Shown here one piece after another: positions 1,069-57,300 of a stretch of 64,000 bases of DNA. The notes beneath the pieces were generated by a model. That model was not told where the DNA came from. It ran no database searches and saw only the letters and a list, made by a program, of their open reading frames with translations. The number at the start of each line of letters is the position of its first letter. Within the stretch, counting starts at the first letter, position 1. The DNA lies in the NCBI GenBank assembly GCA_000004985.1, contig GG738900.1; one strand, 5' to 3'. The DNA is from Naegleria gruberi. Its lineage: Eukaryota. A program made the translations under genes and the position numbers.

Positions 1069-4000
1069 ATGTACGATGTTAATAAGGACGATAACAACAA
1101 ACGAAAGGCCTCTCCAACAAGAGATGCTCTCATGCAACAAAGGTTGGAACACTATAAAAAGTATAAAAACCTTTCGTCGGATGTAGATAGGGCTGATGAT
1201 CAAGGTAGTTTTATTGACGATGAAAACTTTCTTCCTGTAACACCCTCCCCTAAGAAGAGAATTGATACAGTAAAAGGAAGAGAAACACCAAGAGAGACTA
1301 CAAAGGAAACCCCAAAGCCTAGTATAACTCCAACTCCTTCCTCATCAAAGAAAGCTCACCCAAATATTCCAGTGCGGGAAAGTTTTCCTTCTCCATCCAT
1401 GAAGTCTTTGAAACAGACCTATGATAATAGTAAGCTTAAACAAGATGAAGAGATGCAGTCTCTACTAGATAAATTAAGGGAAGAAGGTGAACAAAGACAT
1501 CTTCAGCTAATCACTCTTAAGGAAAATGAAAAGGCCGAGTTTGAACAAAGAATTATGAAGAAGGCTGAAGATATTATCACCAAACATAAGGAACAATCCC
1601 AAAGAGCCCAAGAAGAAGTGTACAGAAAGGCCGAAGAGCTTATGAAGAAATATAAAGAAATGGCATCTTTCGCTGGAAAAGAAGTTGAAAAACTAAAGGA
1701 AGAAATGGCAAATCAAAAACTTCTCTATGAAAGAGATTTTCTTGAAAAGCAAGAAGCTGCTAGAAAAGTGGCCGAAGAAGAATATCAACTTAAGGTTCGA
1801 CAATATCAACTCCAAATAGAAGATCTTCAAAAAAAGAACTATTTGCAAAGAGTTGAAATGAGTAAGAATATTGACGAAAGAGCAGAACTTCTCCGAAAAA
1901 GAGCTGAAGATGCTGAAGCTAAGTTGTTAGAAGAAATGGCCAGATTTCAAGAAAAGGAAGTTGAGTTCAGAAGTGAAATTGACTCCCTTAACAAATCATT
2001 ACCATTATTAGCACAACAAAAAGCCGATGATTTAATGAGAGACTACAATCTCAATATTAAGAAGAAAGATTTTGTTCTTAGACAAGAGCAAGATAATCTT
2101 TTGAAGGAAAGAGAGAAAGAACTCAAAAACGAATACGAACAATTAAAGAAAGAATTGGAAGAAGCCAAACTTGAAAATGAAGAGAAAAAGAATCTAGAGT
2201 TCAAGAGGCTTCGTGACAAGATGGACAATGAAAAGAAGGTTTTCGAAGAAACTGTTAACGCTAGGTTTGAAAAGATGAAGAGTCAATTAGAGGCAGAAGT
2301 TGAATCGAAGAAGGATGAACTTCGACTCAAGGAAATGATGTTGAGAGATGAACTCGATAAGGCTAGATTAGATCTTTCTCACAAGGTCATTAGTGAAAAG
2401 AAGGACTTTGAAAATGATATTTTCATGAAGACTAAATCCATGATTATGGAATTTGAAAAGCAACTCGAAAAGAAAGGTGAAGTGCAGTCTGATGACCAAA
2501 AGAAACAACTTGCCAACATTTCTCGTGATGCTCTTGACAAATTAAGAGTTGAAAAAGAGGAAAGAACTCTTTTTGAAAAACAAGCAATGGAAAAGGCAAT
2601 GAATGTTATCAAGGAATTCGAAGAAAAGATGAAGAAAGAATCCGATAGAATCACTCAAGAAAAGCTTAGAGATGTTGAAGAACAAGCCAGAAGAGACAGA
2701 GAAAGAACCGAGGAAGAAGCTAAAAAGAGAAGAGAGTTCGAAGAAGATATCAAATCAAAGTATGAGATATTTAAGGAAGAATACAAACGAAACTTGGATA
2801 GAGAGCTCTTGGAAAAGAAGAGAGAAATTGATTTAGAATTTGCCAAAAAAGAAGAAGAGTTTGAAAAAGAAATGCATGAGCAAAGAAATAACATTAAACT
2901 CCAAGAAAAAGATCTTCTGAGAAAGGTAGAAGGAATCAAACACGAAAAATTACAAGAATCAATTAATCATATTGAACAACTTAGAGGTGATTTGTACAGT
3001 CAGTGGGAAAGAATTTCCAAGGAGGAAGGTAAACGTGTTCTTGAAGAAAAGGATAAAAATCAAAGGGAAATTGAAGATATGAGACGAAGATATGAAGAAA
3101 AATTAAACCTCATTAGAATGACTACTAATAGAGAAATTGATGAAGTAAGAAAGTCTCACCAAGAACTTGAAACAAAGCTGAAGTTCGACTATGAGGAAAG
3201 AGTTCAAAAATTGAATGACGAAAAGAGATTCCTTGAAAAGGAAATGCAAACCAAGATAATAGATAAGAGAAAGGAACTTGAAGAACAATTCGAAAGAAAA
3301 CTTGAAGAAGCAAAGAAAACTTTGGAGTCCTCATTAGAACGTAGGGATAGTGATGTAAAACTCAAGAAGGAAGAAATTGAATACGAAAAACTTTCCTTTG
3401 AAAGAAAGATTAGAGAGGATTACGATACTAGAATTAGAGAAATATCTACCCAATTTGAGAAGAGACAAAAAGAATATCAAGAAAATGAAATTGAGTTGAG
3501 AAGAAAACTCGAACAAGAAAAGATTGAACTTCAAAAGTTAATGGAAGATGAAAAGATGAAATACCAAGAAAGAGTTAGAATCGAAAATGAAAAGATTTTA
3601 AGAGAAAAAGAAAAATTGTTCAAAGAAGAAAAGGAAAAGATAATTGCCCAAACCGAGGAACGTGTTCAAAGTATCAGAAAGGAAACACAAGACAGCCTTT
3701 TCAATAACGACTCAAAGAGGGGTGAATATGAAAATAGTATACGAGACAATTATAGTAAGATGTTCAGAGAAAAGGAACAATATTATCTTACACAAGTTGA
3801 ATCATTAAAACAAACTCTCAAGACACAGAGAGAGGAATATGAGAACAAACTCAATGAAACAGAATTGTCACTAAGAAAGGAAAGAGATGAGGTTGATAGA
3901 CAAATGACTGAAAAGTACAATAGACTTGTTGAACAAATGAATGGCGACTCTAAGAGAGAAACCCATAAGAGAATGCAACAAGAAATTGAATTTGAAAGTG

Positions 4001-7000
4001 AAAAACTTCAATTTGAGATTAAACTTAAGAAGCAATTGGAAGATGAAAGAAAGAAGATGGAAGACAGAATTCATGAAAAGTTCCAAATGGCAGCTGAAGA
4101 AACAGAAACTCATTACAATGATATCATTAGAAATTTGAAAAATAGACTTGATGAAGAAAAGTCTATTATTGATTCAATGGGTAAGAGAGAAAAGGAACTT
4201 CAGAGAATGTATGAAGAAAAATTGCTTGATACCCAAAGACAAACAGAGTTTGCTAAAATGCAATATGAGGAAGAGTCCAAGATGAGATATACACATCTTC
4301 TTCAAGAATATACTCTCAAGGTAAGACAAGAGTTACTTGAGAAGGAAAAGAAGGAAAGAGAGGAAAGACAGAAAGAAATGGAAGAGTTGAACGCCAAGTT
4401 GGTTAGAATGGAAGAAGACAAGAGACTCTTCGAACAAGATGCTAGAGAAAGAGCTCTAGAACTTGTGAAAAAGGTTGAGGAAGATGCCAGAAGAGAAAAG
4501 CAGAAATTGGAAACATACTATAATGACCTTATTAGAAAGCTTCATGAAGAAAAGACCCTGTACAAGCAAGAAGTTGATGAACATTTGAGAATCAAGGAAA
4601 AGGAATTAAGAGCAAGCGTTGACACACTTAGAGTAAAGCTAGAACATGCAACAGATGCTAGAATCTTGGAAGTGAACGAAATTCTTGAAAAAGAACGAAA
4701 CAGATTCATGAAAGAAATGAATGACAGAGCATTGAGAGAAAAGGAGGACAGAATTGTATTTGAAAAGCATCTTCGTGAGGAGATGGAAAATGAATTCCAA
4801 CAAAGAGCCTCAATTGTTGCAGCAAATATTAAACTACAAACAGAAGAAATTGAAAGAAGAATGTATGAAACTGAAAATAATGAAAGAAATAGAATTAGAA
4901 TATTTGAAGAAAGAAGAAAAGCTTATGAGGAAGAAATTCGTGCCAAATACAATATGATTATGAGTCAAGTTGAAGAAGAACAAGAAAAGAATCTTCAAAC
5001 TGTAAAGAAAGAAATTGAAGAAGAAAGAGACCTACTCACTAAGAGACAGAATGAACTTCAAAAGCAGTTCGACTTGGTCACTATTTCTTATGAAAAGACT
5101 ATCAGAGAAAAGTATGATTCTTTGAGACAAGAACAAGATCAAAGATATAAAGATATGCTCAAACAAAAGGATTTCCAATACCAAACCGAAATTGAAGATA
5201 TGAAGAAATCAAGATCTAAGGAGGTAGAATCAATTGAAAGAGACAAGCTTGAATTTGAATCTCGATTGAGAGAAAAGTATAACCTGTTAGAAAGAGAATT
5301 GGAAGGAAAGTATATTGCCCTTCTTTCTGAAGCAGAAAATAGATACAAGAAGGATAAGCAAAAGTTAGAAACTGAAATAGACAAACTCAGAAATGAATTG
5401 CAAATTATGGATTCTCAAAGACTTGAGTATGAGCAACAAACTAGAAGAAGATATGAGGAAATTTTGGAAAAAGAAAGAAATGAAATCCTTAAAGATAAAT
5501 CTCAAATGGAAAAACAATTTAAGAAGGAAATCGATTCTAATATTGAATTATTCAACGAGAGACAAAGAATACTCGAAAAGAGCAAGTTGGATTATGAAGA
5601 GTCTGTTAGAAATAAGTACATGAGAATTTCTGAAGAAAAAGAGAATCAATTAAAGGCCGATCACGAAAGCCAAAAGATGGCGGATCAAAAGAAGTGGGCT
5701 GAAAGACAGGATGAATGGCTTCAAAAGGAGAGAGAATTCGAAACCAAGATTATTCAATATGAAGATCAAATCAAGAATAAGTATGAAGTTATTATCATGG
5801 ATAATCTCAACAAGACGCAAGCTGAAATGAGAAAGCTTAGATCTCAATTAGATGAAGAAAAGAATGCACTTCTCCAACAATTAACAGAAAAAGAAAGAGA
5901 TTTGAATGCTAAATATCAAAGATTTGAAAGAGATTGCAAATCTAACTTTGAAAAAGAAAAGAGAGAATTGATTGCTCACCATGACTCTGTTATTGAAGAA
6001 CTGAAGAAGGCTCTTGAGCAAGATAGAGCAACTTTGCAAAAGGCAGCCCAAGAAAACAGCTTGGAAATGGAAAGAAGATTGATTTCTCACGAAGAAAATA
6101 TTAGAAAACAATACGAAGATAGATATGTAGAGTTGGATGGAGTTCTTCGCAAAGCCATTGAAGATAGAGAACTACAACTACAAAACGAATGGAATAACAG
6201 ATTTGTTAAGGAACAAGAGAGAATGAATACTAATGATCTAGCAAGAATTGAGTTTGAAGATAGAACAAGAGACTACTTCTTCCAATTATTCAATAACAAG
6301 CAAGCTGCTATGGAGCTCCAAATTAATGAAGAAAAAATGAAATTAGAAAAGGAAAGAGAACAAATGAATATTGCTCTTTCAGACAGAATTCAAGAAATTA
6401 GACAAGAAAAGATTGCCTATGAAGCTGAAATTAGAGAGAAATATAATTCTCTCATCCAAAAGGTCCAAGAGGAAATTAATGTCATGTTAAAGGAAAGAGT
6501 TGAGACCGAAAAATCTGAATGGGTAGCCAGAGAGCAAACCTTCATTGAAAGAGAAACTGAATTACACAGGGAAAGAATCAAATCCGAAGAAGATACTAGA
6601 CAAAAACTTGATCAACTTTTGGATTTGGAAAAGAAAAAGTGTAATGAAATCATTGAAACCCTCCAACAAAAGATTAATGAGGAAAGACATTTGGAAAAGG
6701 TTGAGCTTTCAGAAAAGGAAAGAAAATTGGAGGAATACAAGATTGATTATGAACATGTTGTCAGAGAAAAGTACAACATTATCTTGGAAGATGCTCAAAA
6801 GCACTACAAGACAATGATTGAAGAAGCCACTGATAATTTCAATTCTGAACATGACAAACTCATCAAGGAATTCATTAAAAGAAAAGAAGAACAAGATGGT
6901 GAATTACTTGTCTTACAAAATCAATATAGAAAGGAAATCGAAGATCAGCTTATCAAGTTCCAAGAAATACACACCCAAACAATCAAGATGAAGGAAGAAC

Positions 7001-8988
7001 AATTCCATCTTGAACTTGAGGCTGTATCAGAGTCAATCAGAGAAAAGACTTTGGCAAATGACCTTGCTAGAATTGAATATGAAGAGTATGCCAAGAAGAA
7101 GTTTGAAGAAAATATCAAAGAAGAGCTCCAAAGAATTAAACTCATGGAAGAAAATATTAAGGACCGTATGAGAAAGGATTTGGAAGAAAGAGAAAGAAAA
7201 CGCATTGAAGATAGAAAATCCTTTGATGTTGAAAAGGATATCCTTGAACAAAAGATTAGATCCAAATATGAAAAGATTGCAGAAGAACAAGAAAGAGTTC
7301 ATGTTGCCCGTATAGAACAAATACAGGCTATGGTAGATCAAGAAAGAGATAATCTCGAAAGAAGAGACATTGAAAGAAAACAATTAGCTAGAGAACAAGC
7401 TGCCGAGTCTGAAGAAAAAATGAGAAAGTCTTTTGATGAAAAATTCAAACAACTAGTGGAAGAATATGAAAACAAGATTAGACAAAAGGATAGAGAAATG
7501 GTAGCTGAAAAGGATAAATTCAGTGAAGATATGAGAAAGAGAGAAGCTGAAATTACTCAAATCACAGCCGATTTAGATGAGCAAATATCTCAAAAATACA
7601 AGAAGATTCTTGACCAATCAGAAGAAGCAATTAGAAGAGAATTTGAAGTTAATGAAATGCACTTTAAGGCCGATCTCAATAAGAGGTTCGAAGATCAAAT
7701 TAGAGAACTTGAAATTGCTTCACGTATTGAACAACAAAAATACGAAGAAGATATCCAACTTAGATATGAAAGTAGAGTTAAATCTGTTGACGAAAAGTGG
7801 AGAAGTGAATTAGACATTCTCAAGAAGTTCCATGATGAAGAGATTACCAAGCTTCATGACGAAAGTAGACAACAAAGACTATTAGAACAAGAAAATAGAA
7901 CTCAATACGAGCTTGCAGTAAGAGATCAATACTTCACTAAGCAAAAGGAATTGGAGAATGAACATATCGAAATTATTCAAAGCATTAGAAAAGAAGAGGA
8001 AGAAAATAGATCCAAACTAAATGGTCTTTTAGAAGAAGAAATTCAAAGAGTCAAAGACTCTGTTTATCAAGAGAAGCTTGAAATTGAAAAGAGTTATGAC
8101 AAGAAGCTTGACGCTGTCAAAAAGTGTTTTGATGTTGATATTGCTGAAATTAAAAAGCAATTCCAAGAAAAATCCACTGTCATGGATCTTGCAAAGCTAG
8201 ATTTTGAACAAAAAACCAAAGCTAAATATGAAAAGATTCTGGCCGAAGTTCAATCCTCTTTAGAAAAGAAGTTGGATGACAGAAATAAGGAAATTGAAGA
8301 AGCTAGAAAGCAAATGCAACAAGAGAGAATGAATTATGAACTCCTAGTTAGAGAGAAGTATAATGAAACTCTGAAAGAAAAAGAAAAGCAAATGGAAGAA
8401 ATCCTTAAAGAAAGAGAAATGCTTCTCCTTGATGATGATCAAAGAAGAAATCTTGCCTCCTTAGAAAAGGAAAGAAGATTAGAACAAATGAGAATTGAAA
8501 AGGAAGAAGAAATGAGAGCCAGATTTGAAAAACAAACAGAAGAAATTAGAGAATACAGTAAAGCACAAATAGAAGAAACAATCAAACAACTTGAACTCGA
8601 AAGAAATAAGAAGGAAGAAACTGAAAAAGAAATTATGAAACTCCAACAACAAATTGCTAGTATGCAACATAGTATGGATATGTGGAAATTAGAATATCAC
8701 AAGACCACAACATTGAAATTCAAGAAATTAATGAGCGAAGTTGAGCTCAAAGCCAAACGTGAAATGGAAGAATTTGCCAGACAACAATTAGAAGAAGAAG
8801 AGAGAAGATTAACTCAAGAATTGAGAAAGAAAGATGAAGAATTGAGAAAACATAAACAAATGGAAGAAGAATTGCAGCTCAAGACCATGGAACAGCAACA
8901 ACCAAAGAGAACTCAACCTGGTGAATTTTCTGATAGTACCAGTGAAAAGAACTTCCCAATCAAAAAGGGACTCAGAAACTTTAAATAA
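1069..8988 (+). CDS. Giant K/E/R-rich coiled-coil protein, 2639 aa, single exon
   Basis: Uninterrupted 7.9 kb ORF from ATG at 1069 to TAA at 8986-8988. The N-terminal ~110 aa are S/T-P rich (SPKKR, TPKP). The rest is almost entirely heptad-like E/K/R/L sequence. A sub-motif of the form (I/L/V)R(E/A/S/N)KY(N/D/E)x(I/L)… recurs at least 14 times (IREKYNSLIQ, VREKYNIILED, LREKYNLLERE, IRAKYNMIMSQ, VRNKYMRISEE, IKNKYEVIIMD, IRSKYEKIAEE, VREKYNETLKE …). No motor or other globular domain was recognised. Antisense ORFs in this interval are S/F/L-rich complements of the AAG/GAA-rich strand. Confidence 0.85.
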   Translation: MYDVNKDDNNKRKASPTRDALMQQRLEHYKKYKNLSSDVDRADDQGSFIDDENFLPVTPSPKKRIDTVKGRETPRETTKETPKPSITPTPSSSKKAHPNIPVRESFPSPSMKSLKQTYDNSKLKQDEEMQSLLDKLREEGEQRHLQLITLKENEKAEFEQRIMKKAEDIITKHKEQSQRAQEEVYRKAEELMKKYKEMASFAGKEVEKLKEEMANQKLLYERDFLEKQEAARKVAEEEYQLKVRQYQLQIEDLQKKNYLQRVEMSKNIDERAELLRKRAEDAEAKLLEEMARFQEKEVEFRSEIDSLNKSLPLLAQQKADDLMRDYNLNIKKKDFVLRQEQDNLLKEREKELKNEYEQLKKELEEAKLENEEKKNLEFKRLRDKMDNEKKVFEETVNARFEKMKSQLEAEVESKKDELRLKEMMLRDELDKARLDLSHKVISEKKDFENDIFMKTKSMIMEFEKQLEKKGEVQSDDQKKQLANISRDALDKLRVEKEERTLFEKQAMEKAMNVIKEFEEKMKKESDRITQEKLRDVEEQARRDRERTEEEAKKRREFEEDIKSKYEIFKEEYKRNLDRELLEKKREIDLEFAKKEEEFEKEMHEQRNNIKLQEKDLLRKVEGIKHEKLQESINHIEQLRGDLYSQWERISKEEGKRVLEEKDKNQREIEDMRRRYEEKLNLIRMTTNREIDEVRKSHQELETKLKFDYEERVQKLNDEKRFLEKEMQTKIIDKRKELEEQFERKLEEAKKTLESSLERRDSDVKLKKEEIEYEKLSFERKIREDYDTRIREISTQFEKRQKEYQENEIELRRKLEQEKIELQKLMEDEKMKYQERVRIENEKILREKEKLFKEEKEKIIAQTEERVQSIRKETQDSLFNNDSKRGEYENSIRDNYSKMFREKEQYYLTQVESLKQTLKTQREEYENKLNETELSLRKERDEVDRQMTEKYNRLVEQMNGDSKRETHKRMQQEIEFESEKLQFEIKLKKQLEDERKKMEDRIHEKFQMAAEETETHYNDIIRNLKNRLDEEKSIIDSMGKREKELQRMYEEKLLDTQRQTEFAKMQYEEESKMRYTHLLQEYTLKVRQELLEKEKKEREERQKEMEELNAKLVRMEEDKRLFEQDARERALELVKKVEEDARREKQKLETYYNDLIRKLHEEKTLYKQEVDEHLRIKEKELRASVDTLRVKLEHATDARILEVNEILEKERNRFMKEMNDRALREKEDRIVFEKHLREEMENEFQQRASIVAANIKLQTEEIERRMYETENNERNRIRIFEERRKAYEEEIRAKYNMIMSQVEEEQEKNLQTVKKEIEEERDLLTKRQNELQKQFDLVTISYEKTIREKYDSLRQEQDQRYKDMLKQKDFQYQTEIEDMKKSRSKEVESIERDKLEFESRLREKYNLLERELEGKYIALLSEAENRYKKDKQKLETEIDKLRNELQIMDSQRLEYEQQTRRRYEEILEKERNEILKDKSQMEKQFKKEIDSNIELFNERQRILEKSKLDYEESVRNKYMRISEEKENQLKADHESQKMADQKKWAERQDEWLQKEREFETKIIQYEDQIKNKYEVIIMDNLNKTQAEMRKLRSQLDEEKNALLQQLTEKERDLNAKYQRFERDCKSNFEKEKRELIAHHDSVIEELKKALEQDRATLQKAAQENSLEMERRLISHEENIRKQYEDRYVELDGVLRKAIEDRELQLQNEWNNRFVKEQERMNTNDLARIEFEDRTRDYFFQLFNNKQAAMELQINEEKMKLEKEREQMNIALSDRIQEIRQEKIAYEAEIREKYNSLIQKVQEEINVMLKERVETEKSEWVAREQTFIERETELHRERIKSEEDTRQKLDQLLDLEKKKCNEIIETLQQKINEERHLEKVELSEKERKLEEYKIDYEHVVREKYNIILEDAQKHYKTMIEEATDNFNSEHDKLIKEFIKRKEEQDGELLVLQNQYRKEIEDQLIKFQEIHTQTIKMKEEQFHLELEAVSESIREKTLANDLARIEYEEYAKKKFEENIKEELQRIKLMEENIKDRMRKDLEERERKRIEDRKSFDVEKDILEQKIRSKYEKIAEEQERVHVARIEQIQAMVDQERDNLERRDIERKQLAREQAAESEEKMRKSFDEKFKQLVEEYENKIRQKDREMVAEKDKFSEDMRKREAEITQITADLDEQISQKYKKILDQSEEAIRREFEVNEMHFKADLNKRFEDQIRELEIASRIEQQKYEEDIQLRYESRVKSVDEKWRSELDILKKFHDEEITKLHDESRQQRLLEQENRTQYELAVRDQYFTKQKELENEHIEIIQSIRKEEEENRSKLNGLLEEEIQRVKDSVYQEKLEIEKSYDKKLDAVKKCFDVDIAEIKKQFQEKSTVMDLAKLDFEQKTKAKYEKILAEVQSSLEKKLDDRNKEIEEARKQMQQERMNYELLVREKYNETLKEKEKQMEEILKEREMLLLDDDQRRNLASLEKERRLEQMRIEKEEEMRARFEKQTEEIREYSKAQIEETIKQLELERNKKEETEKEIMKLQQQIASMQHSMDMWKLEYHKTTTLKFKKLMSEVELKAKREMEEFARQQLEEEERRLTQELRKKDEELRKHKQMEEELQLKTMEQQQPKRTQPGEFSDSTSEKNFPIKKGLRNFK

Positions 8989-12678: not shown

Positions 12679-14649
12679 TTATTGATGTGGTTTTACTGGA
12701 GTAGTGGCAATATCTTTGGTTTCAGTTTTTCTTAAAAGAAGAGGGCTTAAGGTGTGATTTGCAAAAAGTTCCAAACATGTCATCATATTTTCCAAATACC
12801 TTTGAACATGTTCGTAATGTACGCTCTCTGGATAACATATTGAAAAGATCAATTCTCCAGTCCTTGAGTTGGTGTAGAAAATATTGGAAATACCATTCGT
12901 GTTGCCAATGGCAGAATAAGCCGCTGAGATGAGCTCAAATCTGACATTCTGTCCTGTCAAATTCTCCAATTTACCTATATTACTGAATACCATTTGGAAA
13001 GATTCCTTCTTACTAATGTCAAATTTCAGAAATTTGTGAACTATTTGATAGGTAGATAGAGTGTCATGATACTTCTTATTGAGACAATTTCTCGTTTGAT
13101 AGGATCCATCTAATATTATTTCAATCAATTTATCAATATCCGATTCATTATTAGGGGATATGTTTTGGGGAATGTGCAATCTGGTGGTTGATAAAAGTGC
13201 TGAGGAATAATTTCTAAAGATGTCCTTTGGTTTCCCGAGTGGAAGGAGAATACCTTCTCTAAAATCCACTGTTATGGTATTAGTAAAACCAAAGGTTGTC
13301 TTTTCTCTCGCTTTTTCATTGTAAGACCTTGAAGAGAGAACCCATGCCAAACATCCAATCGATTGAACTATTGCTGTAACTGTGAGGTCAAGTGTCTTGG
13401 TTTTTTCAATCAACTTGGTAAGTGTTAACTTACTGGTATGTCGAATGAGAACCTTAGTCTGTGCTGGCTCAGGATAGGGAGATTTTAGTGGAAATGATAT
13501 TATTGGAGACAAACCATTATAACTAATCACTTGACTCACAAATCTAGAATAGAATAATAATCCTCCAAGTTTTCCAAGTTTTTTAGGAATATCTGACTCT
13601 GCATGGTGGTGAGTTGGAGTGGAGCTAGTTGAGCTACTGGTGCTACTGCTAGTTTCTGTTGGAGATTGATCATTCTTCTTTTTTTGTGGAGCAGTTTTTG
13701 ATTTAAGCATTTCCAGAATTTGAATAGGTGAGGGTGGAAGTAGAGAATGAATGTTTTCTAAGGCTTTCCTCTTTACCTCCATCAACTCTTTTTCCACATC
13801 GACAAGCTGTACTTCTCCATACATGTAATCGAATAATGAGGCAAACTCTTCAAGGAAGATTTTTATACTCGTAGCATCACAAAGAGCATGAAAAAATGTA
13901 AAACAACACACCCATTTCCCATCTGTGTGTTTTGATTTTGTGATGGTCAACCTCCACATTGCTTGGACTGAATTTGGATCTCGTAAAATATCCCATGAAT
14001 GAATAATCTCGTGATTAATTAGTAATTTTACAAGCTCTTCTTCATTTTCGATTTCAATATTGTCAGGATTTATCGAATTTTCATCCAATAATACTTGAAT
14101 ATCCACAGTGATTTGATCCACAATTTCGAATTGAATAGTTCCACGTGATTGTACAATTTCTTTCGTCCATATTTCGTGTAAAACTTTTTCAATATTATCC
14201 GAATGTGATGAAATCTTTGAATTGATTTTCTTCTTCAGTTTATCCTTCAGTGTAGGAATGGCACACAACATTGGATGTCTATATTTCAGAATATCAATAC
14301 ACTTTTTACATTTCTCCTTTAGTTTCTCCCCTTCAGCTCTCACTATTTCAATATCATCTTGTGTACCCTCCTGTAATTTGACACTTTTTGGAATAATATC
14401 TGCTGCCAATACTAAATTATGATGTCCCAGAAAGTTTTTATCATTAATTCTATGAAAATAATATTGTTCACTGAGTGTTGTTTCTACACATCCGATCGGT
14501 GGATTGAGTGACAATAATTGTAATCTTTCCCTAAGTGCACTAGAGAAGGGAATCGGAATAAAATTTTTATATATCCTCTCTAAATCCTCTTCACTATGAT
14601 GATTGTGATGATGAATTGCTATTTCCTTGTTGTGCTGTTTGAGTGTCAT
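12679..14649 (-). CDS. HxxxD-motif acyltransferase-like protein (condensation / WS-DGAT / PapA5-like superfamily), 656 aa
   Basis: Single ORF from ATG at 14649 to the stop at 12679. The motif FFHALCDATS resembles the HHxxxDG active-site motif of CoA-dependent acyltransferases. N-terminal His-rich stretch and an internal S/T tract (SSSTSSSTSSTPTHHH). The functional call is tentative. Confidence 0.7.
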   Translation of the reverse strand: MTLKQHNKEIAIHHHNHHSEEDLERIYKNFIPIPFSSALRERLQLLSLNPPIGCVETTLSEQYYFHRINDKNFLGHHNLVLAADIIPKSVKLQEGTQDDIEIVRAEGEKLKEKCKKCIDILKYRHPMLCAIPTLKDKLKKKINSKISSHSDNIEKVLHEIWTKEIVQSRGTIQFEIVDQITVDIQVLLDENSINPDNIEIENEEELVKLLINHEIIHSWDILRDPNSVQAMWRLTITKSKHTDGKWVCCFTFFHALCDATSIKIFLEEFASLFDYMYGEVQLVDVEKELMEVKRKALENIHSLLPPSPIQILEMLKSKTAPQKKKNDQSPTETSSSTSSSTSSTPTHHHAESDIPKKLGKLGGLLFYSRFVSQVISYNGLSPIISFPLKSPYPEPAQTKVLIRHTSKLTLTKLIEKTKTLDLTVTAIVQSIGCLAWVLSSRSYNEKAREKTTFGFTNTITVDFREGILLPLGKPKDIFRNYSSALLSTTRLHIPQNISPNNESDIDKLIEIILDGSYQTRNCLNKKYHDTLSTYQIVHKFLKFDISKKESFQMVFSNIGKLENLTGQNVRFELISAAYSAIGNTNGISNIFYTNSRTGELIFSICYPESVHYEHVQRYLENMMTCLELFANHTLSPLLLRKTETKDIATTPVKPHQ

Positions 14650-21635: not shown

Positions 21636-23002
21636 ATGCTTCGAAATGTTGTGCTAAAATCCAAGCCATCAGCCGATTATATTTTCACTCATGATAATAC
21701 TATACGACACACAAAACCCTTTTTTCAAAAGTATGATACACGAACTAAAGGAAGAATGTTGGGAAAATCATTTATTGAAAGTTTTTGTGCAGAATATGTT
21801 GTTCCGGAGGATGTTTTCATGCAATATTGTGAACATGATTTTATTAAATTGAATAAGAAACGAGTGGAGGATGCGAATCATATTATGGGATATAAGGACT
21901 CATATCAAACGGAGGATGTTAGAACAGATAAAATTACTACGAATTTTGATAGTATTGAAGTAATTTATGAGGATGATTCAATTTTGGTTTTGGCAAAACC
22001 AGAAAATGTACCAGTTCATAGTATGTGTTTGTGAAATTGTTTTATTGACATTAGTTTAAAAGAGGTTGGACGATATGTGAAAAATAATTTAATTGATATT
22101 TTGAAAAGAGAATATACTAGATTTCATCCAACAATGTTACCGAATGCGGATTTATTTCCTCTTCACAGGATAGATCGATTAACTTCTGGAGTTTTAATTT
22201 TGGGAAAGAGCTCAGAAGTTGCTAGGGATTTCTCAGCCTCATTAAAATCCAAACAAGTTGGAAAACAATACATTGCTGTGGCTGAAGGAATATGTCCAAC
22301 TGAGGGTTTATTCAAAGTAGATTATCCACTCATGGAAATTGATCCATTGTTGGGCATTTGGAGAGCAGTACATTCTGAGGAATCGAAAGAATTTATCAAG
22401 AAACATTACCTTCATCACACTCCATTGGATTGGAATAATGTCAAGGAGGCTGAAACTCTTTTCCAAGTACTTTACAGAGATTATGCAAGTAATAGAACTG
22501 TATTTTTATGTCAACCAGTAAGTTTTATTATCTGAAATATAGTTTCTTATTTCAATTTAAGGTAACTGGAAGGTAAGGTTAATGTTCATAATAATTTTTT
22601 AACAAACAAAATAATAGAACTCATCAAATTAGAGAACATTTGTACGCTATTGGTCACAAAATTATTGGAGATTCAGCTGATGATGAGGATAGAACTTCTT
22701 TTAATTTAAATTGGAAGGAAATGGCTCATAACATGTGGAGATGGAAAATAAATGCCATGTCAAAGCATGGTTTCGGAAATAAGAAAGTTATTGAAATGGC
22801 CATAGACGAAATTATAATGAAAGGAGAATATCAAATTCCTCAATCTCTTGGACTATTTTCTGTCAGTTACAGATATCAGGATTTATTATTCGAATGCGAG
22901 ATTTATAGACCACAATGGATTGATGATGTTTGGCCATCCATTCAACACAACATGAAGAGTTGTGAATTATATTATAATTTTGTAAATAATAAGAATACCT
23001 AG
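21636..23002 (+). CDS. RluA-family pseudouridine synthase, 4 exons including an 11-nt microexon
   Basis: Exons 21636..22020, 22063..22517, 22562..22572 and 22618..23002. Introns are 42 nt (GTATGT…AAAAG), 44 nt (GTAAGT…TTAAG) and 45 nt (GTAAGG…AATAG). Motifs in order: SILVLAKPENVPVH|KVGRYVKNNLIDIL; catalytic HRIDRLTSGVLILGK; then …VFLCQP|VTG|RTHQIREHLYAIGHKIIGD. The last is the RluA consensus P-x-TGRTHQIR and is recovered only when the microexon is included. Confidence 0.8.
22562..22572 (+). other. 11-nt microexon (GTAACTGGAAG) of the pseudouridine synthase gene, encoding V-T-G of the TGRTHQIR motif
   Basis: Flanked by an AG acceptor (22560-61) and a GTAAGG donor (22573). It restores frame between the exon ending at 22517 (phase 0) and the exon starting at 22618 (needs phase 2). 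No simple two-exon join is in frame. Confidence 0.7.
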
Positions 23003-29750: not shown

Positions 29751-32009
29751 TTAACTGCCATATCGAATAAGGCCAACTAGTGAAGGGCCTTGTTCTGGCT
29801 TGTGCTCATCCCGTACTTCAAATCCATGTTTTTTGAGAAAATCAACCACAGAGGAGTAACCTTCATCCTTGTAAACAAAAGTATAAATTGGAAGAGAAGC
29901 CTCATCAGACGATTTGATTATTGGCATGAGCACTTCATTGCCAAGTCCTTTCTTTCTCAATTTAGGTTTAACAGCAAGTGCCAATAGTGTCCAGTGAGGT
30001 TTATGAGGCGAGGAAATGAGAGAGTTGTGATATTCTTCCATACTCTCAGCACATTTGATACATCTGTACATGGATTTAAGTTTTCTTAATAATAGGTACG
30101 TTAATGAAATTGAAGCTTATGGGATTACTTACAGACTCTTGGGTGATTTTAAAATTCCAAGCTTTAACATTCTCCATAAACCAATACCTTTCGTATTGTA
30201 GGGATCTTGCCATATAGAAATAGCTTGAATTTCCTTGTCCTGATTGGCGAGTGAGTAGTGAATATTGACATATACTCTGCCATATTTGATTCCATATTTT
30301 AGTAATAGAGTACAGAGAAATAAGAGAGCATCTTCTGCAATCTCACTTATTGATTCCACATTAAAAATATGCTTTAAAAGAGAATTCCAATTCAGAAAGG
30401 GTGAATTATTAGTAGTGGGAATGATCAATGCTGGTGAATCCTCAGCAGTAGATGTGCTTGTGGATTTTGAGCTTCCAGTACCAGTACTGTTAGTCAATTT
30501 GGCTTCAATGAATAGCTTCTGGAGTGGATTGTTATCAGAATGTTTGACAACATTAACCAAAAATTTGGCAGCCTCCTCAATTTGACCAGGATGAATCTCT
30601 GAAACTACATTTTTACCTCGCTTATTTCTATCTCTTCTTGTTCGTGGTTTGTGAATTTTTACATAATTATAGACCTGAGTTTTGAATATGTTATTGTCGA
30701 ACAATCCATTTCCAATCTTGGCAATGTCTGATGATGCACGCGATTTGGTACTGTTACTCCTAGATTTTCTTGATTTTGTGCCTGCTGCGTTTGAGTTGGT
30801 TATTTCCTTTCCAATACTTGTTGATGTAACAAAGTTTTTAAACCATTCCTCTTCCCAAATCTTGAAAAATTCCTTGCAACACAATGCAACATGATACATA
30901 TCTTCCAATGAGAGGAAGGCAAATACATTTAACTTTAAAGAAGTTGGATTGAGAGTATTGAAACTTTGTAATGAGAGTTTGATATTATCTTCCCTAAAGT
31001 TTTCCATGATTCGATCCAAAATTTTAATCGTTTTTGCAGCACTAGGTCTGTCCCTTGGTTGATAGCTCAGTAATAGTTTGGTCAAATTGAATAAACCCCT
31101 AGAATATCCCATAGTATCGACACAGTAATGTTCAATCTCATTGAAAAAGTTTGGATTTTTCTGCAATTCCATTGACACCATCATTTGTTTTCCTTCAGCC
31201 ATCATTTGAAGAAGAATCCTATCCAAGTTTATGATTAATATTGAAGATGAATAGACAACCTACACTCCAAATGAATACATATCCGTTGACTGATCATAAA
31301 ATTCCTTGTTTAACATTTCATAGCTCATAAAATCTATTGTTCCACACTGGGTTTTAGCCATTGATAGTGTATCCAAAACTCTACTAATTCCAAAATCTCC
31401 AATCTTTAAAACTCCTGATGCGTCTATTAGAATATTTTGTGGTTTTCTAGAATTAAATTTAAAAGAATAAAAAAATTAATTTTAAATTAATTCGAAACTT
31501 ACAAATCTCGATCTATAAAAAGTATAATAAATTCCAATAATAATAGTAATAGAAATACATACGTATTATATTATTTTCATGCAAATAATTCAATCCTTCA
31601 GCAATTTGAATTGCATAATTTACTATATCCTTTTCCTTCATCTTTCTCTCCTTTTTACAAGTTGTAGTAATGAGCTTTTGCAAATCTCCTCCAGGACAAT
31701 ATTCAATACACAAACAGACATATAAAGTCTCTGCCTTTTTACTGTATTGATGAAGAAAGGCTCCCAAATACTTTATCACATTTCTATGAGAAAGATTCCG
31801 AAGTTTTTGAGCTTCATTCAAATGAATATTGGCCTCATCCAATGAAGACCATTCCATTCTCTTGATTGCTATTTGTTCTTCTGTTTTCTTGTGTTCAGCC
31901 AAAACGACTTGTCTAACATAAGTTATGATGATTAGCCATTTGATATTAATAAAACAACTTACCCTTCCGAACCTCTCCCTAAAATCTTTATAACGTAGTA
32001 CTGTTCCAT
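29751..32009 (-). CDS. NEK-like Ser/Thr protein kinase fused to F-box-like and GNAT acetyltransferase domains, 6 exons including a 10-nt microexon (~669 aa)
   Basis: Exons (minus strand) 31963..32009, 31563..31912, 31503..31512, 31264..31446, 30133..31218 and 29751..30084. Introns of 50, 50, 56, 45 and 48 nt, with donors GTAAGT, GTATGT, GTAAGT, GTAGGT and GTAAGT. The spliced product reads MEQYYVIKILGRGSEG|QVVLAEHKKTEEQIAIKR…YLHENNII|HRDL|KPQNILIDASGVLKIGDFGISRV…CGTIDFMSYEM…DMYSFGV|ILLQMM…SYQPRDRPSA…. An F-box-like stretch follows (NVFAFLSLEDMYHVALCCKEFFKIWEEEW), then a GNAT fold (…WTLLALAVKPKLRKKGLGNEVL…IYTFVYKD…). The last intron overlaps the TAA at the end of the ORF at 30129 and continues in frame into the ORF at 29751..30071. 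Confidence 0.7.
31503..31512 (-). other. 10-nt microexon (ATCGAGATTT) of the kinase gene, supplying H-R-D of the HRDLKPQN catalytic loop
   Basis: Lies between the GTATGT…TATAG intron (31513..31562) and the GTAAGT…TCTAG intron (31447..31502). Phases 1 to 2 are consistent with the flanking exons. Without it the HRDLKP motif and the downstream frame are lost. Confidence 0.7.
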
Positions 32010-32872: not shown

Positions 32873-32946
32873 GCCTTCCTAGCTCAGTTGGCAGTAGCGC
32901 TGTCCTAGTAAGACAGAGGTCTTGGGTTCGATTCCCAAGGGAGGCA
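32873..32946 (+). tRNA. tRNA-Thr (anticodon AGT)
   Basis: 74 nt: GCCTTCC TA GCTC AGTTGGCAG TAGC G CTGTC CTAGTAA GACAG AGGTC TTGGG TTCGATT CCCAA GGGAGGC A. It folds as a cloverleaf with a 7-bp acceptor stem including one G-U pair, a 5-bp anticodon stem, U33, anticodon A34-G35-U36 and a TTCGATT T-loop. No intron. Confidence 0.9.
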
Positions 32947-43037: not shown

Positions 43038-46037
43038 ATGTCTTCAGGAGGATCTGGTTTCATAGAACAATTGGAGTCAAATCCCTTTTTCAAGAATGGT
43101 GGTGTTTTTGTAACAATTGCTATAAACGTTATTTTACTGGTAATTGTTATGAGCATCTATGTTTGCTGCATTCGATACTGCACAATATTCAATGTGAGAA
43201 AGAAGAAGAGACTCATAGCCAAATGTTTGAAACGAGAGGATGAATTATTTGTGGAACAACAGTCACACACAAGAGATTCTGAAAACAATCACAACAATCA
43301 AGAAGACGAGATTCGTGAAGAATCAAACAGTGAAAGAGAACATCATGAATCAAACAAGGGAAAATCTCTTTCCAAAACAGTTGACCAACATGTAGAAGAT
43401 GACTCTTCCTTTTTCGAAGTTAAAGATTTGAGAGCAAAATATTTAAGCAATCATTGCCTCTCTGATTGGTATTTGAGAAGTGTCTTTTTCTGGAGAATTA
43501 CAAAGAGTTTGATTCAGGCACCTTTTCTAATCATCTATAGAACTCTATTTAATGGAAGAAACAAGTCATGGTTCGGTGCAGCCATCAAGGAGGAAAAGAG
43601 AGTGATTAGAAATTATGGAAGAGATGTTCTGACATATATCAAATTCCATCAGCTTTTATGGTGGGTCTTTACCATTATGTTAGTATTATTCAGTGCCCTG
43701 CTGTATCCAATTCACATAACCAATCAGGGAAATTTGGATCCAGCACAGAAGGAGAAATTTTCCAAGAATGTTACTGGACTAAAGGTTGGATCATCAGATC
43801 AATTTCTTGTCGTTTCTTCAATTAATACAGTGATTGGTAGACCTGATATATTGATTCTACATGTAATTCTATCAGTCATTACGGTTGCTCTCGTTCTTGC
43901 AATGCTTCTTCTCTTCACAAGGGATAAATCATTGAGAGATTATGATTACTGTGGTTGTGATCAAGAGGGAATCTATGGATCCTTCTCTCCTTACTTGCCT
44001 CATTACTTTGGAGCAGAATTTGCCTTGAAAACTCAAAACATGTCCCTTGGAACGCCTCACGAAAATCTCAATTACAAATCCCTATCTCCATTCACATTGG
44101 AAATTCACAACATTCCCAAGCATTATACAAATAAGGCGCTTTTTCACCAATTGATGAAGAAGATATTCAGTCACAATGCAACTGATTTGAATGCTCCAAC
44201 AAATCCACATATTCTCTCATCCTATCATGTTATTAATTTCGCAAAGAGAGAAAAGCTGCAACAGAAATTTGAAACTCAATTGGATAATCTTGAAGGTTAC
44301 AATTGGCAACTTGAAACAAAGAATACGAGACCCAAGAAGAAGTGTTTCTTTCAGAAGCAAGATGATGGCGATTCCAAGAGAAAACTAATTCAGAGCAAAG
44401 ATGCAATCGTCTTTACAAAAGAGAAAATTAGAAACTTGAATACAGAAATTGAAGATTTAGAGGAAGAATTAACACTTTCCAGTAATTATCCAAACAGAAT
44501 TAGTAGTTCCATTCAGGGAAGTGGCATTGGTTATGTGGTCTTCTCTTCTAGAAGTTCAATCGTTTATGCTCTCAAGAAGTTTACAAAATTGGGAACATTC
44601 AAAGTTTACAAAATGAAGGAAACTGATGATAATGGACAAGAGATTGAAAAATTGTTCACTCCTGCAGAAAGAAACCAACTTCCAATAGATGCCAAAGTAA
44701 CATGCATTAGAATGAGGGCCACTAATACCAATTATGAGCAAAGAGATTGCTTCTGGACTACTCTCTATACAATGTATCAACATTCATGGATCAAGCCAGT
44801 TATTTTGAAAATTACAATCTTTATCGTTATTCTGATCATATTTGTATTTTTCACAACACCCGTAGTTATTGTTTCATCCATTGATACCTTTTTTGCAATT
44901 CCACCAGTTACAGAGACTATTAAGAAGATTGTTGAAGTTGGTGGTCCAATGATGTCTGTTATATTCCAGTATATTCCCTCATTATTGTTGGTGGCAAGCT
45001 CTGCTTTGATTCCAGTATTCATTTACCAGTTGACCAAACTTGAGGATATGAAAACATTCAGTGAGTTTAGTAGAACTATTCTCAGAAGAATAACAATATT
45101 CCTCTGGCTCAACGTGTTCATTCTACCAACTCTAGTTTTAACAACTTTGGATGGCATAACAAACTTTTTCACAAATCCAGACAGTTTGGCAAATGTCTTT
45201 AAGAATTTATTCATGTCTGACAATGGCTCTCTGTTCATCAACTTTATATTGAATAAGACACTATATGGGCTGGCATTTACTTTAATGCCTCTCTTATCAT
45301 TGATTCTCTATTCGGTTTTCACATTGTGTACCAGCAGTGTCAGTAAGAAACTCAGAATAAGCAGAAGTATGAAACCAAAAGACAAATTGAAATGGGCCGA
45401 AGGAGATTCATTCTCTCTCGAGTATTCCTATGCCTATTCGATCCTTATTATGGCTATTGTTTTCACCTTTAGTTTATTTTCACCATTTATCTTACTGGTG
45501 ACCTTTATTTATTTCACTCTGAGGTATTATGTTGAGAGATTCACCATTGGAAGAATTTATTCACATAGACTCCTTCAGCATCATCACAAGAAGAAGAGGC
45601 ATCTCATCACAAGTCAGGGATACTATCTCAGTGACAGTGCAGACCAAACTATTTCTCCTGCAGTTGTGAGACATAGTTTTGGATGCTTGTTTGGATTCAA
45701 AACAGATTACGTTGCTCACAGAAGATCCATGCTCTTGATTTCCAAATTGTGTATTGTTGCCCTTATTATGTTTACAGTGTATTGCATGCTATTCTTTGCA
45801 TTCAAAACTCCTGAAAGTCAATACTTTATTTTCCATGTTACTATTGAGGCAATTTTAACCTTATTCCTTCTTATTGTGTTCTTTGCTATCGAAATTAAAA
45901 TGACAAGAGACATTAGAACATTGAACAAGCAACCTTTAATAGTTAATGAGGAAAGTGCTAGCAAGAAAACCTTGTATGAACCAAGCAATTATTGGAATTA
46001 CAAGAAAATGTTCAATGACACTGTAACCAACTTATAA
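43038..46037 (+). CDS. OSCA/TMEM63/CSC1-family calcium-permeable mechanosensitive channel, 999 aa, intronless
   Basis: N-terminal TM helix; a cytosolic RRM-like region (GIGYVVFSSRSSIVYALKKF, compare AFVTFKSRxGAA); then multiple TM helices. The hallmark RSN1_7TM motif is present: YQLTKLEDMKTFSEFSRTILRRITIFLWLNVFILPTLVL (compare LSKFEGHISRSSLERSAAxKYYYFLLVNVFLGSII). Confidence 0.85.
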   Translation: MSSGGSGFIEQLESNPFFKNGGVFVTIAINVILLVIVMSIYVCCIRYCTIFNVRKKKRLIAKCLKREDELFVEQQSHTRDSENNHNNQEDEIREESNSEREHHESNKGKSLSKTVDQHVEDDSSFFEVKDLRAKYLSNHCLSDWYLRSVFFWRITKSLIQAPFLIIYRTLFNGRNKSWFGAAIKEEKRVIRNYGRDVLTYIKFHQLLWWVFTIMLVLFSALLYPIHITNQGNLDPAQKEKFSKNVTGLKVGSSDQFLVVSSINTVIGRPDILILHVILSVITVALVLAMLLLFTRDKSLRDYDYCGCDQEGIYGSFSPYLPHYFGAEFALKTQNMSLGTPHENLNYKSLSPFTLEIHNIPKHYTNKALFHQLMKKIFSHNATDLNAPTNPHILSSYHVINFAKREKLQQKFETQLDNLEGYNWQLETKNTRPKKKCFFQKQDDGDSKRKLIQSKDAIVFTKEKIRNLNTEIEDLEEELTLSSNYPNRISSSIQGSGIGYVVFSSRSSIVYALKKFTKLGTFKVYKMKETDDNGQEIEKLFTPAERNQLPIDAKVTCIRMRATNTNYEQRDCFWTTLYTMYQHSWIKPVILKITIFIVILIIFVFFTTPVVIVSSIDTFFAIPPVTETIKKIVEVGGPMMSVIFQYIPSLLLVASSALIPVFIYQLTKLEDMKTFSEFSRTILRRITIFLWLNVFILPTLVLTTLDGITNFFTNPDSLANVFKNLFMSDNGSLFINFILNKTLYGLAFTLMPLLSLILYSVFTLCTSSVSKKLRISRSMKPKDKLKWAEGDSFSLEYSYAYSILIMAIVFTFSLFSPFILLVTFIYFTLRYYVERFTIGRIYSHRLLQHHHKKKRHLITSQGYYLSDSADQTISPAVVRHSFGCLFGFKTDYVAHRRSMLLISKLCIVALIMFTVYCMLFFAFKTPESQYFIFHVTIEAILTLFLLIVFFAIEIKMTRDIRTLNKQPLIVNEESASKKTLYEPSNYWNYKKMFNDTVTNL

Positions 46038-50654: not shown

Positions 50655-50735
50655 CGCAGACTGCAGGATTCGAACCTACGAAGGTTTCCCCAACAGATTT
50701 CAAGTCTGTCGCCTTAACCACTCGGCCAAGTCTGC
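50655..50735 (-). tRNA. tRNA-Ser (anticodon TGA), class II with long variable arm
   Basis: Reverse complement: GCAGACT TG GCCG AGTGGTTAA GGCG ACAGA CTTGAAA TCTGT TGGGGAAACCTTCGTAGG TTCGAATCC TGCAGTCTGC G. Anticodon loop CU-UGA-AA. The long extra arm is typical of tRNA-Ser. No intron. Confidence 0.85.
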
Positions 50736-54309: not shown

Positions 54310-57300
54310 TTACTTTCTTTTGAGGAAGGATGGTTTACCAAAGAATGAAGACTTAATGCTTTGAAGTTCACCTACCGATTGTAAATCATTTCCTTCAGTC
54401 TCATTATTTTGTTCAGGATCTGTCTTCTTATTTCTAGTAAAGAATGATTTCTTTGTATCCAAACGAGGTATAGCAGCTCTAGTATTTTGTACTTCTTCAA
54501 CTACAACATAAACATCTTCTGCTTCATCATCATCTTGTGCAACTTGTTGTGTGCTAATGTTTGAGGAAACAACATGCTGAGTGGAACCGGTTACAACTGT
54601 GCTACTAGAGCTAGAAGAATGGTTAGTAACAGTAGAGCTACTGGTTTGCTTTGTGACAATATTTGAACTACTGATGGCTTGTTGAGAACTTGTTATCACT
54701 GTTTGTCCGGATACTGCTGATGAGTTTGAATTTTCTGTTGTGGTGATAGTGGAAGAGCTTTGCTTTGATCCAAAGGCCCCTTTCACTGCTTCTCTCATGG
54801 AAGTCTTGCTTTTCATTCCCTTCAATGCTTGCCATCCAAATGGCATTCTCTTCTTTTCAACTCCAGTTTCTTCAACTACAACATAAACATCTTCTGCTTC
54901 ATCATCTTCTTGTGCTACTTGTTGACCATTACTACTGGACACAACTTGTTGACTTGAGGATTGACTAACCATTTTACCTGATTCACTTGCTTCGATAGAT
55001 TTGCTACTATTTACAACAGTCTTTTCTTGTGAAGAAAATCTAGTGGATTTAGATTTTTCAGGCTTTCTCTTTGATGATGCTTCTTGGGATTCAACAACAA
55101 TATAAACATCTTCTCCTTCATCAACCTCTTCAGAAGCACCAGATTGTTGAGTTGAGGTCTTTTGAGCTACCATATTAGATGTCATATTTATAGAAGCAGC
55201 TGATCTACTGCTGATCATAGAGTTGGTAGATTGATAGGTACTTAATTGATCTTCTTGGGTGTAATCAGATGATCTACCTTCCTTTGTTATCAATGCATTG
55301 GCAGCATCTCTCATTGACATCTTATTCTTCTTCATATCTTTCAATGCTTGCCATGCTGAAGATTTCTTTCTCTTCTCCTTTGCTTCTGACTCTACAACAA
55401 CATAAACATCCTCACCTTCATCAACTTCTTCCTTCTTGTTAACAACACTACCCACGTTTCGTTCAAACATACCACTACTCAAGGTTTGCAACATCATATC
55501 TTCGTTCTTTTCCTCTTCGAAAGACATTGGTGGTTTACTTCTGTTCACAACAGTATTCTCTTCAAAGGAACTTTCATTGTTGGAAGAAGAGTTTGGTAAA
55601 GTCTTACTTGATTTGCTAGATTTAGACTTTTCAGGCTTTCTCTTTGATGATGCTTCTTGAGATTCAACAACAATATAAACATCTTCTCCTTCATCAACCT
55701 CTTCAGAAGCACCAGATTGTTGAGTTGAGGTCTTTTGAGCTGCCATATTCAATTCGCTGGATTGTTGATTTGAGGATTTTTGAAGTTTTCTACTACCAGA
55801 AGTAGAGTTAGATTGGTGGACTTGTTCTTCATCAAGAGATACTGGAGGCTTACTTCTGTTAACAACTGATTTTTCTTGAGAAGATTTTGTGGATGATTTT
55901 CCGTTCTTTGACTTCTTGTTTGATCTCTTCTTTGATTTTTCTTCAGATTCCACAACAACAAAAACATCTTCTCCTTCATCTTCTTCAACAGAATTGGTCA
56001 CATTTTGTTGCATCGATTGTGCTTGCATTCCAGATAAGTTACTTGTTGGTATCTTTTGCTTGCTTTCTTTTGGTTTGCTGACTGGTTTCATCTTCTTTTC
56101 TTCAGATTCTACAACTACGAATACATCCTCTCCTTCGTCCTTGCTTTCTGTTGCTGTAGCCATTATTGATTCTCTGTGAGATAATGGCGAGCTCCTAACT
56201 GCTGGTTGGGTTGGTTCTTCATCAAATGACAATGGAGGCTTGCTTCTGTTGACAACTGAATTTTCACTAGAATCTCCAATATATTTGGAAGAAACCTTAA
56301 TTGGTTTGTTTTGCATGATATCTTCTTGAACTGGAGGAGCGTATTTCTTGGCTTGTTCTGATTCTGCAACAATATAAACATCTTCATCAACCTCTTCAGA
56401 AGCAGCAGATTTGTTAGACACTTGTGGTCTTGTTTCCTCAGAAGTGAATTTCTTATTTACAACACTTTCTTCGAACTTATTAGCAGCAAACATGTCACCA
56501 TACAAAGATTGTAACATCTTCTTATTTTCTTCCTCTTGTACGACATTTAGTGGAGAGGCCTTTACTATCTTTTCTTCCTCAGTATAAACTTGTCCTCTAA
56601 CAGTTTGAGAGTTAACACTTGATGGTCTGCTACTGGTTGTTGAATTCAATTCCACATCTCTAGTTTCCTTGGATGCTGACTGAACTCTAGTTCTTCTTGT
56701 TGGGAGTCTTGGACTACCGTGAGATTGAGGTCTTGATGAGCTTTGGTTTGATGTAACTCTTGGAGCACTCTTATTGTTCAAAACAACGTTTTGCAATGAT
56801 TTTTCCTCTTCCTCTTCTTCATCAATATAAACTTGGCCTTGAACTGTTTGAGATTTAGGAGCAACATAGGATCTTGGTTTGGAAGGTTTAACTTCTTCAG
56901 GTGTTGTTTCCACAACTTGCTTCTTTTCCTTTTCTGAGAATAATTCACCTCTCAAGGTTTGAGCCTTATTACTTTGTAAAACTCTTGGCTGAACAAATTC
57001 AGGCGTCTTACTATGATTAACAACTTCCTTTTCTTCAGTTTGCTTGGTTTCACTAAATACATCTCCTCTCATGGTTTGAGATTTGTTACTTGGTAAAACT
57101 CTTGGACTCTTTGGTTGAGCAACTTCTAGGGCTCTACTATGATTAACCACTTCCTTTTCTTCCTTAGAGTTTGCATAAAGTTCTCCCTTCAAGGTTTCCG
57201 TATTTGCACTTGAAATATGCTTCTTTTCTGGAACTTTACCGATTGGCTTACTAGATACATCACTACCGGTAATCAAATTGGCATTCTCATCGACAGTAGT

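Follow-up and report, generated by a model that had tools for sequence, protein, structure and literature searches.

Structure and annotation of the synthase locus

The window analysed here is a 64,000-nt stretch of contig GG738900.1 from Naegleria gruberi NEG-M, with a GC content of 32-37% and densely packed genes. On its + strand, between 21636 and 23002, lies a predicted pseudouridine synthase gene with four exons, one of them only 11 nt long. Exon 1 (21636..22020) begins with an ATG at 21636 and ends in phase 1 after ...PENVPVH, which is joined by removal of intron 1 (22021..22062; 42 nt, GTATGT...AAAAG, phase 1) to KVGRYVKNN at the start of exon 2 (22063..22517). This second exon encodes motif II, HRIDRLTSG, with the catalytic Asp166, and ends in phase 0 with ...VFLCQP. 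Intron 2 (22518..22561; 44 nt, GTAAGT...TTTAAG, phase 0) has an in-frame TGA inside it and is followed by the putative microexon (22562..22572), whose 11 nt, GTAACTGGAAG, specify V281, T282 and G283 together with the first two bases of the R284 codon. Intron 3 (22573..22617; 45 nt, GTAAGG...AATAG, phase 2), found in N. gruberi only among the four species compared, separates the microexon from exon 4 (22618..23002); the first base of this exon completes R284, after which it reads THQIREHL..., carries the catalytic Arg289 and closes with a stop codon at 23000-23002. The sequence immediately downstream of the AATAG that ends at 22617 is AACTCATCAAATTAGAGAACAT. Spliced in this way (21636-22020, 22063-22517, 22562-22572 and 22618-23002), the coding sequence comprises 1236 nt and would yield a protein of 411 amino acids.

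We use the term microexon for an internal exon of at most 30 nt, and in the present case of at most 15 nt. The segment at 22562-22572 is bounded by the AG and GT of plausible introns (TTTAAG-GTAACTGGAAG-GTAAGG, with flanks of 44 and 45 nt), and its inclusion is both needed for a conserved in-frame product and sufficient to yield one. All four splice sites of introns 2 and 3 are canonical, the donor of intron 3, GTAAGG, differing at +6 from the usual GTAAGT or GTATGT. An initial reading made from the letters of the sequence, hereafter the sequence-only reading, had placed GTAAGT at 22518, the end of TTAAG at 22561, GTAAGG at 22573 and the end of AATAG at 22617, and every one of these positions and strings is accurate. 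Without splicing, translation past 22517 meets a TGA after six codons, the corresponding ORF (22077..22535) ending ...CQPVSFII, and reading from the microexon into intron 3 meets an immediate TAA (GTA ACT GGA AGG TAA). In the spliced mRNA, inclusion of 22562-22572 predicts the string CAACCAGTAACTGGAAGAACTCATCAA, and skipping predicts TGTCAACCAAACTCATCAAATTAG, in which CAACCA is joined to AACTCA.

The reference annotation appears to have missed this structure and to have kept only a fragment of 132 amino acids. This fragment, the ORF 21636..22034 (XP_002672089.1 / D2VUY2 / NAEGRDRAFT_72826, 'predicted protein'), is the only exact public N. gruberi product that we found, and it consists of exon 1 read into intron 1, ending in SMCL. 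N. gruberi has since been re-assembled and re-annotated with RNA-seq in a 2025 paper (PMC12695648).

A sequencing or assembly error as the cause of the frame break was considered and rejected, because an independently assembled N. gruberi contig that covers the gene (ENA ERZ929261, 5,210 bp) is identical to the window over 22500-22640. ERZ929261 (run ERR1078381, project PRJEB11402) is labelled as a metagenome assembly; its contigs are near-identical to the N. gruberi scaffold, from which they differ by a few SNPs and an indel per 5 kb. None of the five coding differences between this contig and the window alters the encoded protein (P about 3e-4 under neutrality), and since all five fall in exon 1 they demonstrate constraint directly for that exon only; one more difference lies in intron 1.

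Several features elsewhere in the window provide its setting. The ORFs at 12679-14649 (- strand) and 43038-46037 (+ strand) match XP_002672141.1 and XP_002672096.1 exactly, and genes for tRNA-Thr(AGT) (32873-32946, + strand) and tRNA-Ser(TGA) (50655-50735, - strand) are situated between protein-coding genes. Two ORFs are very long and uninterrupted, one at 1069-8988 (+ strand; 2639 aa), where AT and GC skew are both strongly positive, and one at 54310-63993 (- strand; 3227 aa).

Splice solutions and the integrity of motif III

The structure given above was compared with every frame-preserving GT/GC...AG solution containing one or two introns of at least 25 nt each, located within 22440-22700 and open to the native stop, of which there are 333 (14 with a single intron and 319 with two). 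None of the 14 single-intron solutions under these settings retains THQIR, in agreement with the claim of the sequence-only reading that no single intron can join the exon ending at 22517 in frame to RTHQIREHL. When all solutions were scored with an HMM built exclusively from 52 homologs outside Heterolobosea, the microexon solution ranked first with 147.6 bits, ahead of a runner-up at 133.3 and a median of 84.3, and the proposed join ...CQP-VTG-RTHQIR... is thereby borne out. In every other single- or two-intron solution motif III is lost or damaged, and the score falls by 14 bits or more. Similarly, the Pfam profile PF00849 is matched with 85.5 bits over positions 2-150 of 152 when the microexon is included, and over positions 2-139 with 56.6 bits (in-frame single-intron model) or 58.1 bits (read-through) when it is left out. 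It should be noted that rescue of the reading frame is by itself weak evidence, because 27% of 200,000 shuffles of the 100-nt gap also yield some in-frame, stop-free internal exon; xTGR was encoded in none of the 200,000 shuffles.

In a protein alignment with RluA-type homologs, a check that the sequence-only reading had proposed, the spliced protein fits and its VTGR aligns in motif III. This motif, PVTGRTHQIR (residues 280-289), is complete only if 22562-22572 is spliced in. T282, G283 and R284 are invariant in 55 of the 55 homologs, and position 281 is V in 43 and I in 6 of them; the segment singled out from sequence as an RluA motif is thus motif III of the RluA family. The aligned motif reads CSPVTGRTHQIRVH in E. 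coli RluC and KPITGRSHQLRVH in RluA. Motif II (residues 163-171) likewise has R164, D166, T169 and G171 invariant throughout the 55 homologs. [quoted passage not shown] The predicted microexon carries the invariant start of motif III rather than the catalytic residues themselves, since Asp166 is encoded in exon 2 and Arg289 in exon 4. The description of the microexon as part of the 'catalytic core' accordingly needs to be narrowed to the invariant T-G and two bases of the R284 codon, where motif III starts.

Membership in the RluA family is indicated by the PF00849 (PseudoU_synth_2) score, which lies well above the gathering cut-off of 26.8 bits, by a motif II of the form HRLDxxTSG with the catalytic Asp, and by a motif III of the form xTGRTHQ(I/L)R with the catalytic Arg. 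The curated cut-off of the NCBIfam model TIGR00005 (rluA_subfam) was missed, at 148 versus 192.7 bits, and this limits only that subfamily label, because the model was built for bacterial and archaeal annotation. We conclude from the spliced sequence that the locus encodes an intact, predicted RluA-family pseudouridine synthase of 411 amino acids. Compared with the family at large, i.e. RluA, RluC and RluD of E. coli and the eukaryotic RPUSD proteins, the N. gruberi protein has PF00849, motif II HRIDRLTSG and motif III PVTGRTHQIR in common, and its best matches outside the heteroloboseans include RPUSD2-type and fungal RluA-family proteins. It differs from them by inserts at about residues 232-262 and by N-terminal and C-terminal extensions of ~105 and ~100 amino acids, respectively, that have no Pfam match.

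Intron positions in Naegleria and Willaertia

The closest annotated orthologs are XP_044547120.1 of N. lovaniensis (57% identity), XP_044560800.1 of N. fowleri and KAL9653682.1 of Willaertia magna (46%), and intron positions in the four species were compared by mapping the ortholog proteins back onto their own loci. Intron 1 occupies the same position, in the same phase, in all four. The phase-0 intron after CQP is common to N. gruberi (44 nt), N. lovaniensis (49 nt) and N. fowleri (56 nt), and no intron is found after CQP in Willaertia.

It is at the next position that N. gruberi stands apart. The annotated orthologs of N. lovaniensis and N. fowleri read CQP, intron, ITGRTHQIR, and the second intron is absent. 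Following CQP, the N. lovaniensis exon starts with ATCACTGGAAG and passes uninterrupted into GACTCATCAA, and the N. fowleri exon does the same from ATTACTGGAAG into GACTCATCAA; as neither species has the second intron, A-T-C/T-ACTGGAAG runs directly into the sequence of the following exon. The order in N. gruberi is GTAACTGGAAG, then 45 nt (GTAAGG...AATAG), then AACTCATCAA, so that the extra 45 nt are placed at the AAG/R site, and 9 of the 11 microexon bases match the homologous start of the 100-nt exon in N. lovaniensis and N. fowleri. Another intron lies 100 nt downstream in these two species, and N. gruberi does not have it. Willaertia alone among the four has an intron inside the Q codon of THQ (Q287). 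Within 21 nt of motif III coding sequence there are, in all, three lineage-specific intron positions, namely after P280 (all Naegleria), at R284 (N. gruberi) and at Q287 (Willaertia), with coordinates 22518-22617 in the window, L001 3962-4193 and L002 3868-3919.

Parsimony across the four species, with Willaertia as the outgroup, leads us to infer that intron 3 was gained in the N. gruberi lineage. The order of events would then be that an older Naegleria intron was already present after CQP when intron 3 arose at the AAG/R site 11 nt downstream, and that its arrival severed the microexon from the following exon. As to the source of the inserted sequence, an introner or repeat origin was discarded, no similar copy being present elsewhere in the window, as was an origin by tandem duplication, intron 3 having no similarity to the flanking exons, nor to intron 2 beyond the splice-site bases. 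We also rejected intron sliding between intron 3 of N. gruberi and the Willaertia intron, which lie 9 nt apart and have the same phase, because the intervening 9 nt encode invariant residues in both species.

Splicing of very small exons in Naegleria

When the window was searched for pairs of short introns enclosing an exon of at most 30 nt, 50 or more open codons being required on either side, only two loci stood out, the synthase and a protein kinase; the other matches are by-products of single introns. The kinase microexon (31503..31512, - strand) consists of 10 nt, ATCGAGATTT, which specify R and D together with two bases each of the H and L codons in HRDLKPQN, the HRDL belonging to the catalytic loop, and it is flanked by introns of 50 nt (31513-31562, - strand; GTATGT...TATAG) and 56 nt (31447-31502, - strand; GTAAGT...TCTAG). 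The gene has its ATG at 32009 (- strand), the spliced product reads ...LHENNIIHRDLKPQNILID..., and skipping the microexon shifts the frame into stops. The fully spliced protein of 669 amino acids is exactly XP_002672146.1 / D2VUY8 (NAEGRDRAFT_72831), and the kinase microexon is therefore already part of the reference annotation. In N. fowleri (L006 1171-1180) and in N. lovaniensis (L007 1311-1320) the identical 10 nt form an annotated exon, with flanking introns of 86/95 and 166/64 nt, respectively, as compared to 50/56 nt in N. gruberi.

The kinase gene (29751-32009, - strand) also contains a 48-nt intron (30085-30132), beyond which its C-terminal part is encoded. This part is also present in a related JGI protein, labelled as an acetyltransferase (RimI-like) fusion, and an F-box-like Pfam match occurs in some homologs. 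At the other end of the gene, the coding sequence of the N. fowleri (L006 501-620) and N. lovaniensis (L007 501-630) orthologs opens with an exon of 14 nt, followed by a second of 32 nt, and the same region in N. gruberi (31963-32009, - strand) is one continuous exon.

The second microexon noted in the sequence-only reading at 31503–31512 is thus real, as its HRDL and the match to XP_002672146.1 attest, but two cases in 64 kb do not prove a special property of this genome, as had been suggested. The accompanying statement that gene finders miss exons of this size describes the broken 132-aa model of the synthase, but it does not extend to the kinase, whose 10-nt exon was annotated; hence, very small exons are not always missed. 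The two microexons are alike in their genome, in the order of short intron, microexon and short intron, in their location in an active-site motif and in having a length that is not a multiple of 3. They differ in that the kinase microexon is annotated and conserved base for base in three Naegleria species, whereas that of the synthase is unannotated and, among the four species compared, confined to N. gruberi.

Where introns are short, as in this genome, in which most measure 40-52 nt, splice sites are expected to be paired across the intron (intron definition), and exon length would not be limiting. The recognised ORF-joining introns in the window usually have GTAAGT or GTATGT donors; all of them have G at +5, and the length is 41-52 nt in 7 of the 9. 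With introns of ~45 nt, the splice sites in the synthase gene are presumably paired across each intron and not across exons, and with such pairing an exon of 10-11 nt would be no obstacle. Introns 2 and 3 are probably removed sequentially, since the 3' site of the former and the 5' site of the latter are only 11 nt apart. The string AAGGTAA occurs twice in this region, 11 nt apart (22559-22576).

Taken together, the region 22518-22617 very probably represents two ordinary spliceosomal introns (44 and 45 nt) around a constitutive 11-nt coding microexon, giving an intact 411-aa enzyme of the RluA family. One could instead regard the locus as a decaying pseudogene or truncated gene with an unspliced insert, in which case the product would be either the 132 amino acids of the annotated model or a protein of 285 amino acids ending ...CQPVSFII. 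The 132-aa model is indeed the only one for this gene that we found in the reference annotation, and the exact 411-aa protein and the spliced 27-mer junction were absent from a 15-billion protein collection and a metagenome contig collection, respectively. All four exons are open, however, and motifs II and III keep each of their invariant residues; the 45-nt insert starts with GTAAGG, ends with AATAG and has the modal intron length, and the exclusively synonymous coding differences between the two N. gruberi sequences likewise speak against decay. Of the two alternative products, the one of 132 amino acids is without a Pfam domain and terminates within a canonical intron found at a conserved position in four species, and the one of 285 amino acids would contain neither motif III nor the catalytic Arg. 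We regard loss of function at this locus as highly improbable.

The microexon might also be included only part of the time, such that skipping, either through direct use of the donor at 22518 with the acceptor at 22617 or through a second splicing step from the GTAACT at 22562, causes a frameshift and acts as an on/off switch through unproductive splicing. Consistent with this, the skipped form would read CQP-NSSN-stop, with termination after 4 codons, and AAG/GTAAC (22559-22566) resembles a juxtaposed 3'/5' splice site, with AAGGTAA found again 11 nt further on. The GTAACT with which the microexon begins is, however, a weak donor-like string without the G at +5 that is present in every confident donor in the window, and annotation treats the comparable microexon of the kinase as constitutive in three species, so that part-time inclusion seems very unlikely. 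Slightly less so, though still improbable, is the broader proposition that a recent gain of intron 3 within an invariant motif of the N. gruberi lineage, together with the GTAACT start of the microexon, has led to skipping under some conditions, with a premature stop switching the enzyme off. Constitutive inclusion remains by far our preferred reading.

We consider the predicted synthase microexon to be a sound and well-supported gene-model correction that involves no new biology or mechanism. It turns a 132-aa 'predicted protein' with no domain into a complete, predicted pseudouridine synthase of the RluA family, and so bears on inventories of RNA-modification enzymes in N. gruberi, a much-used free-living relative of N. 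fowleri. The synthase and the conserved kinase case jointly suggest that Naegleria splices internal exons of 10-11 nt, and homology-guided checks can expose more broken models of this kind. The locus may, in addition, serve as a small and clean example of intron turnover, with a lineage-specific gain beside an older intron.

Constitutive coding microexons of at most 15 nt, often missed by annotation, are known for example in plants (PMC8831610). The predicted N. gruberi microexon resembles these in being a tiny internal exon between canonical introns that encodes conserved domain residues, in having a length that is not a multiple of 3, so that its omission breaks the frame, and in having been missed by annotation while being recoverable by homology. 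It differs from the plant cases in its host, a heterolobosean amoeba with introns of ~45 nt in which intron definition is expected, and in being predicted from genomic sequence.
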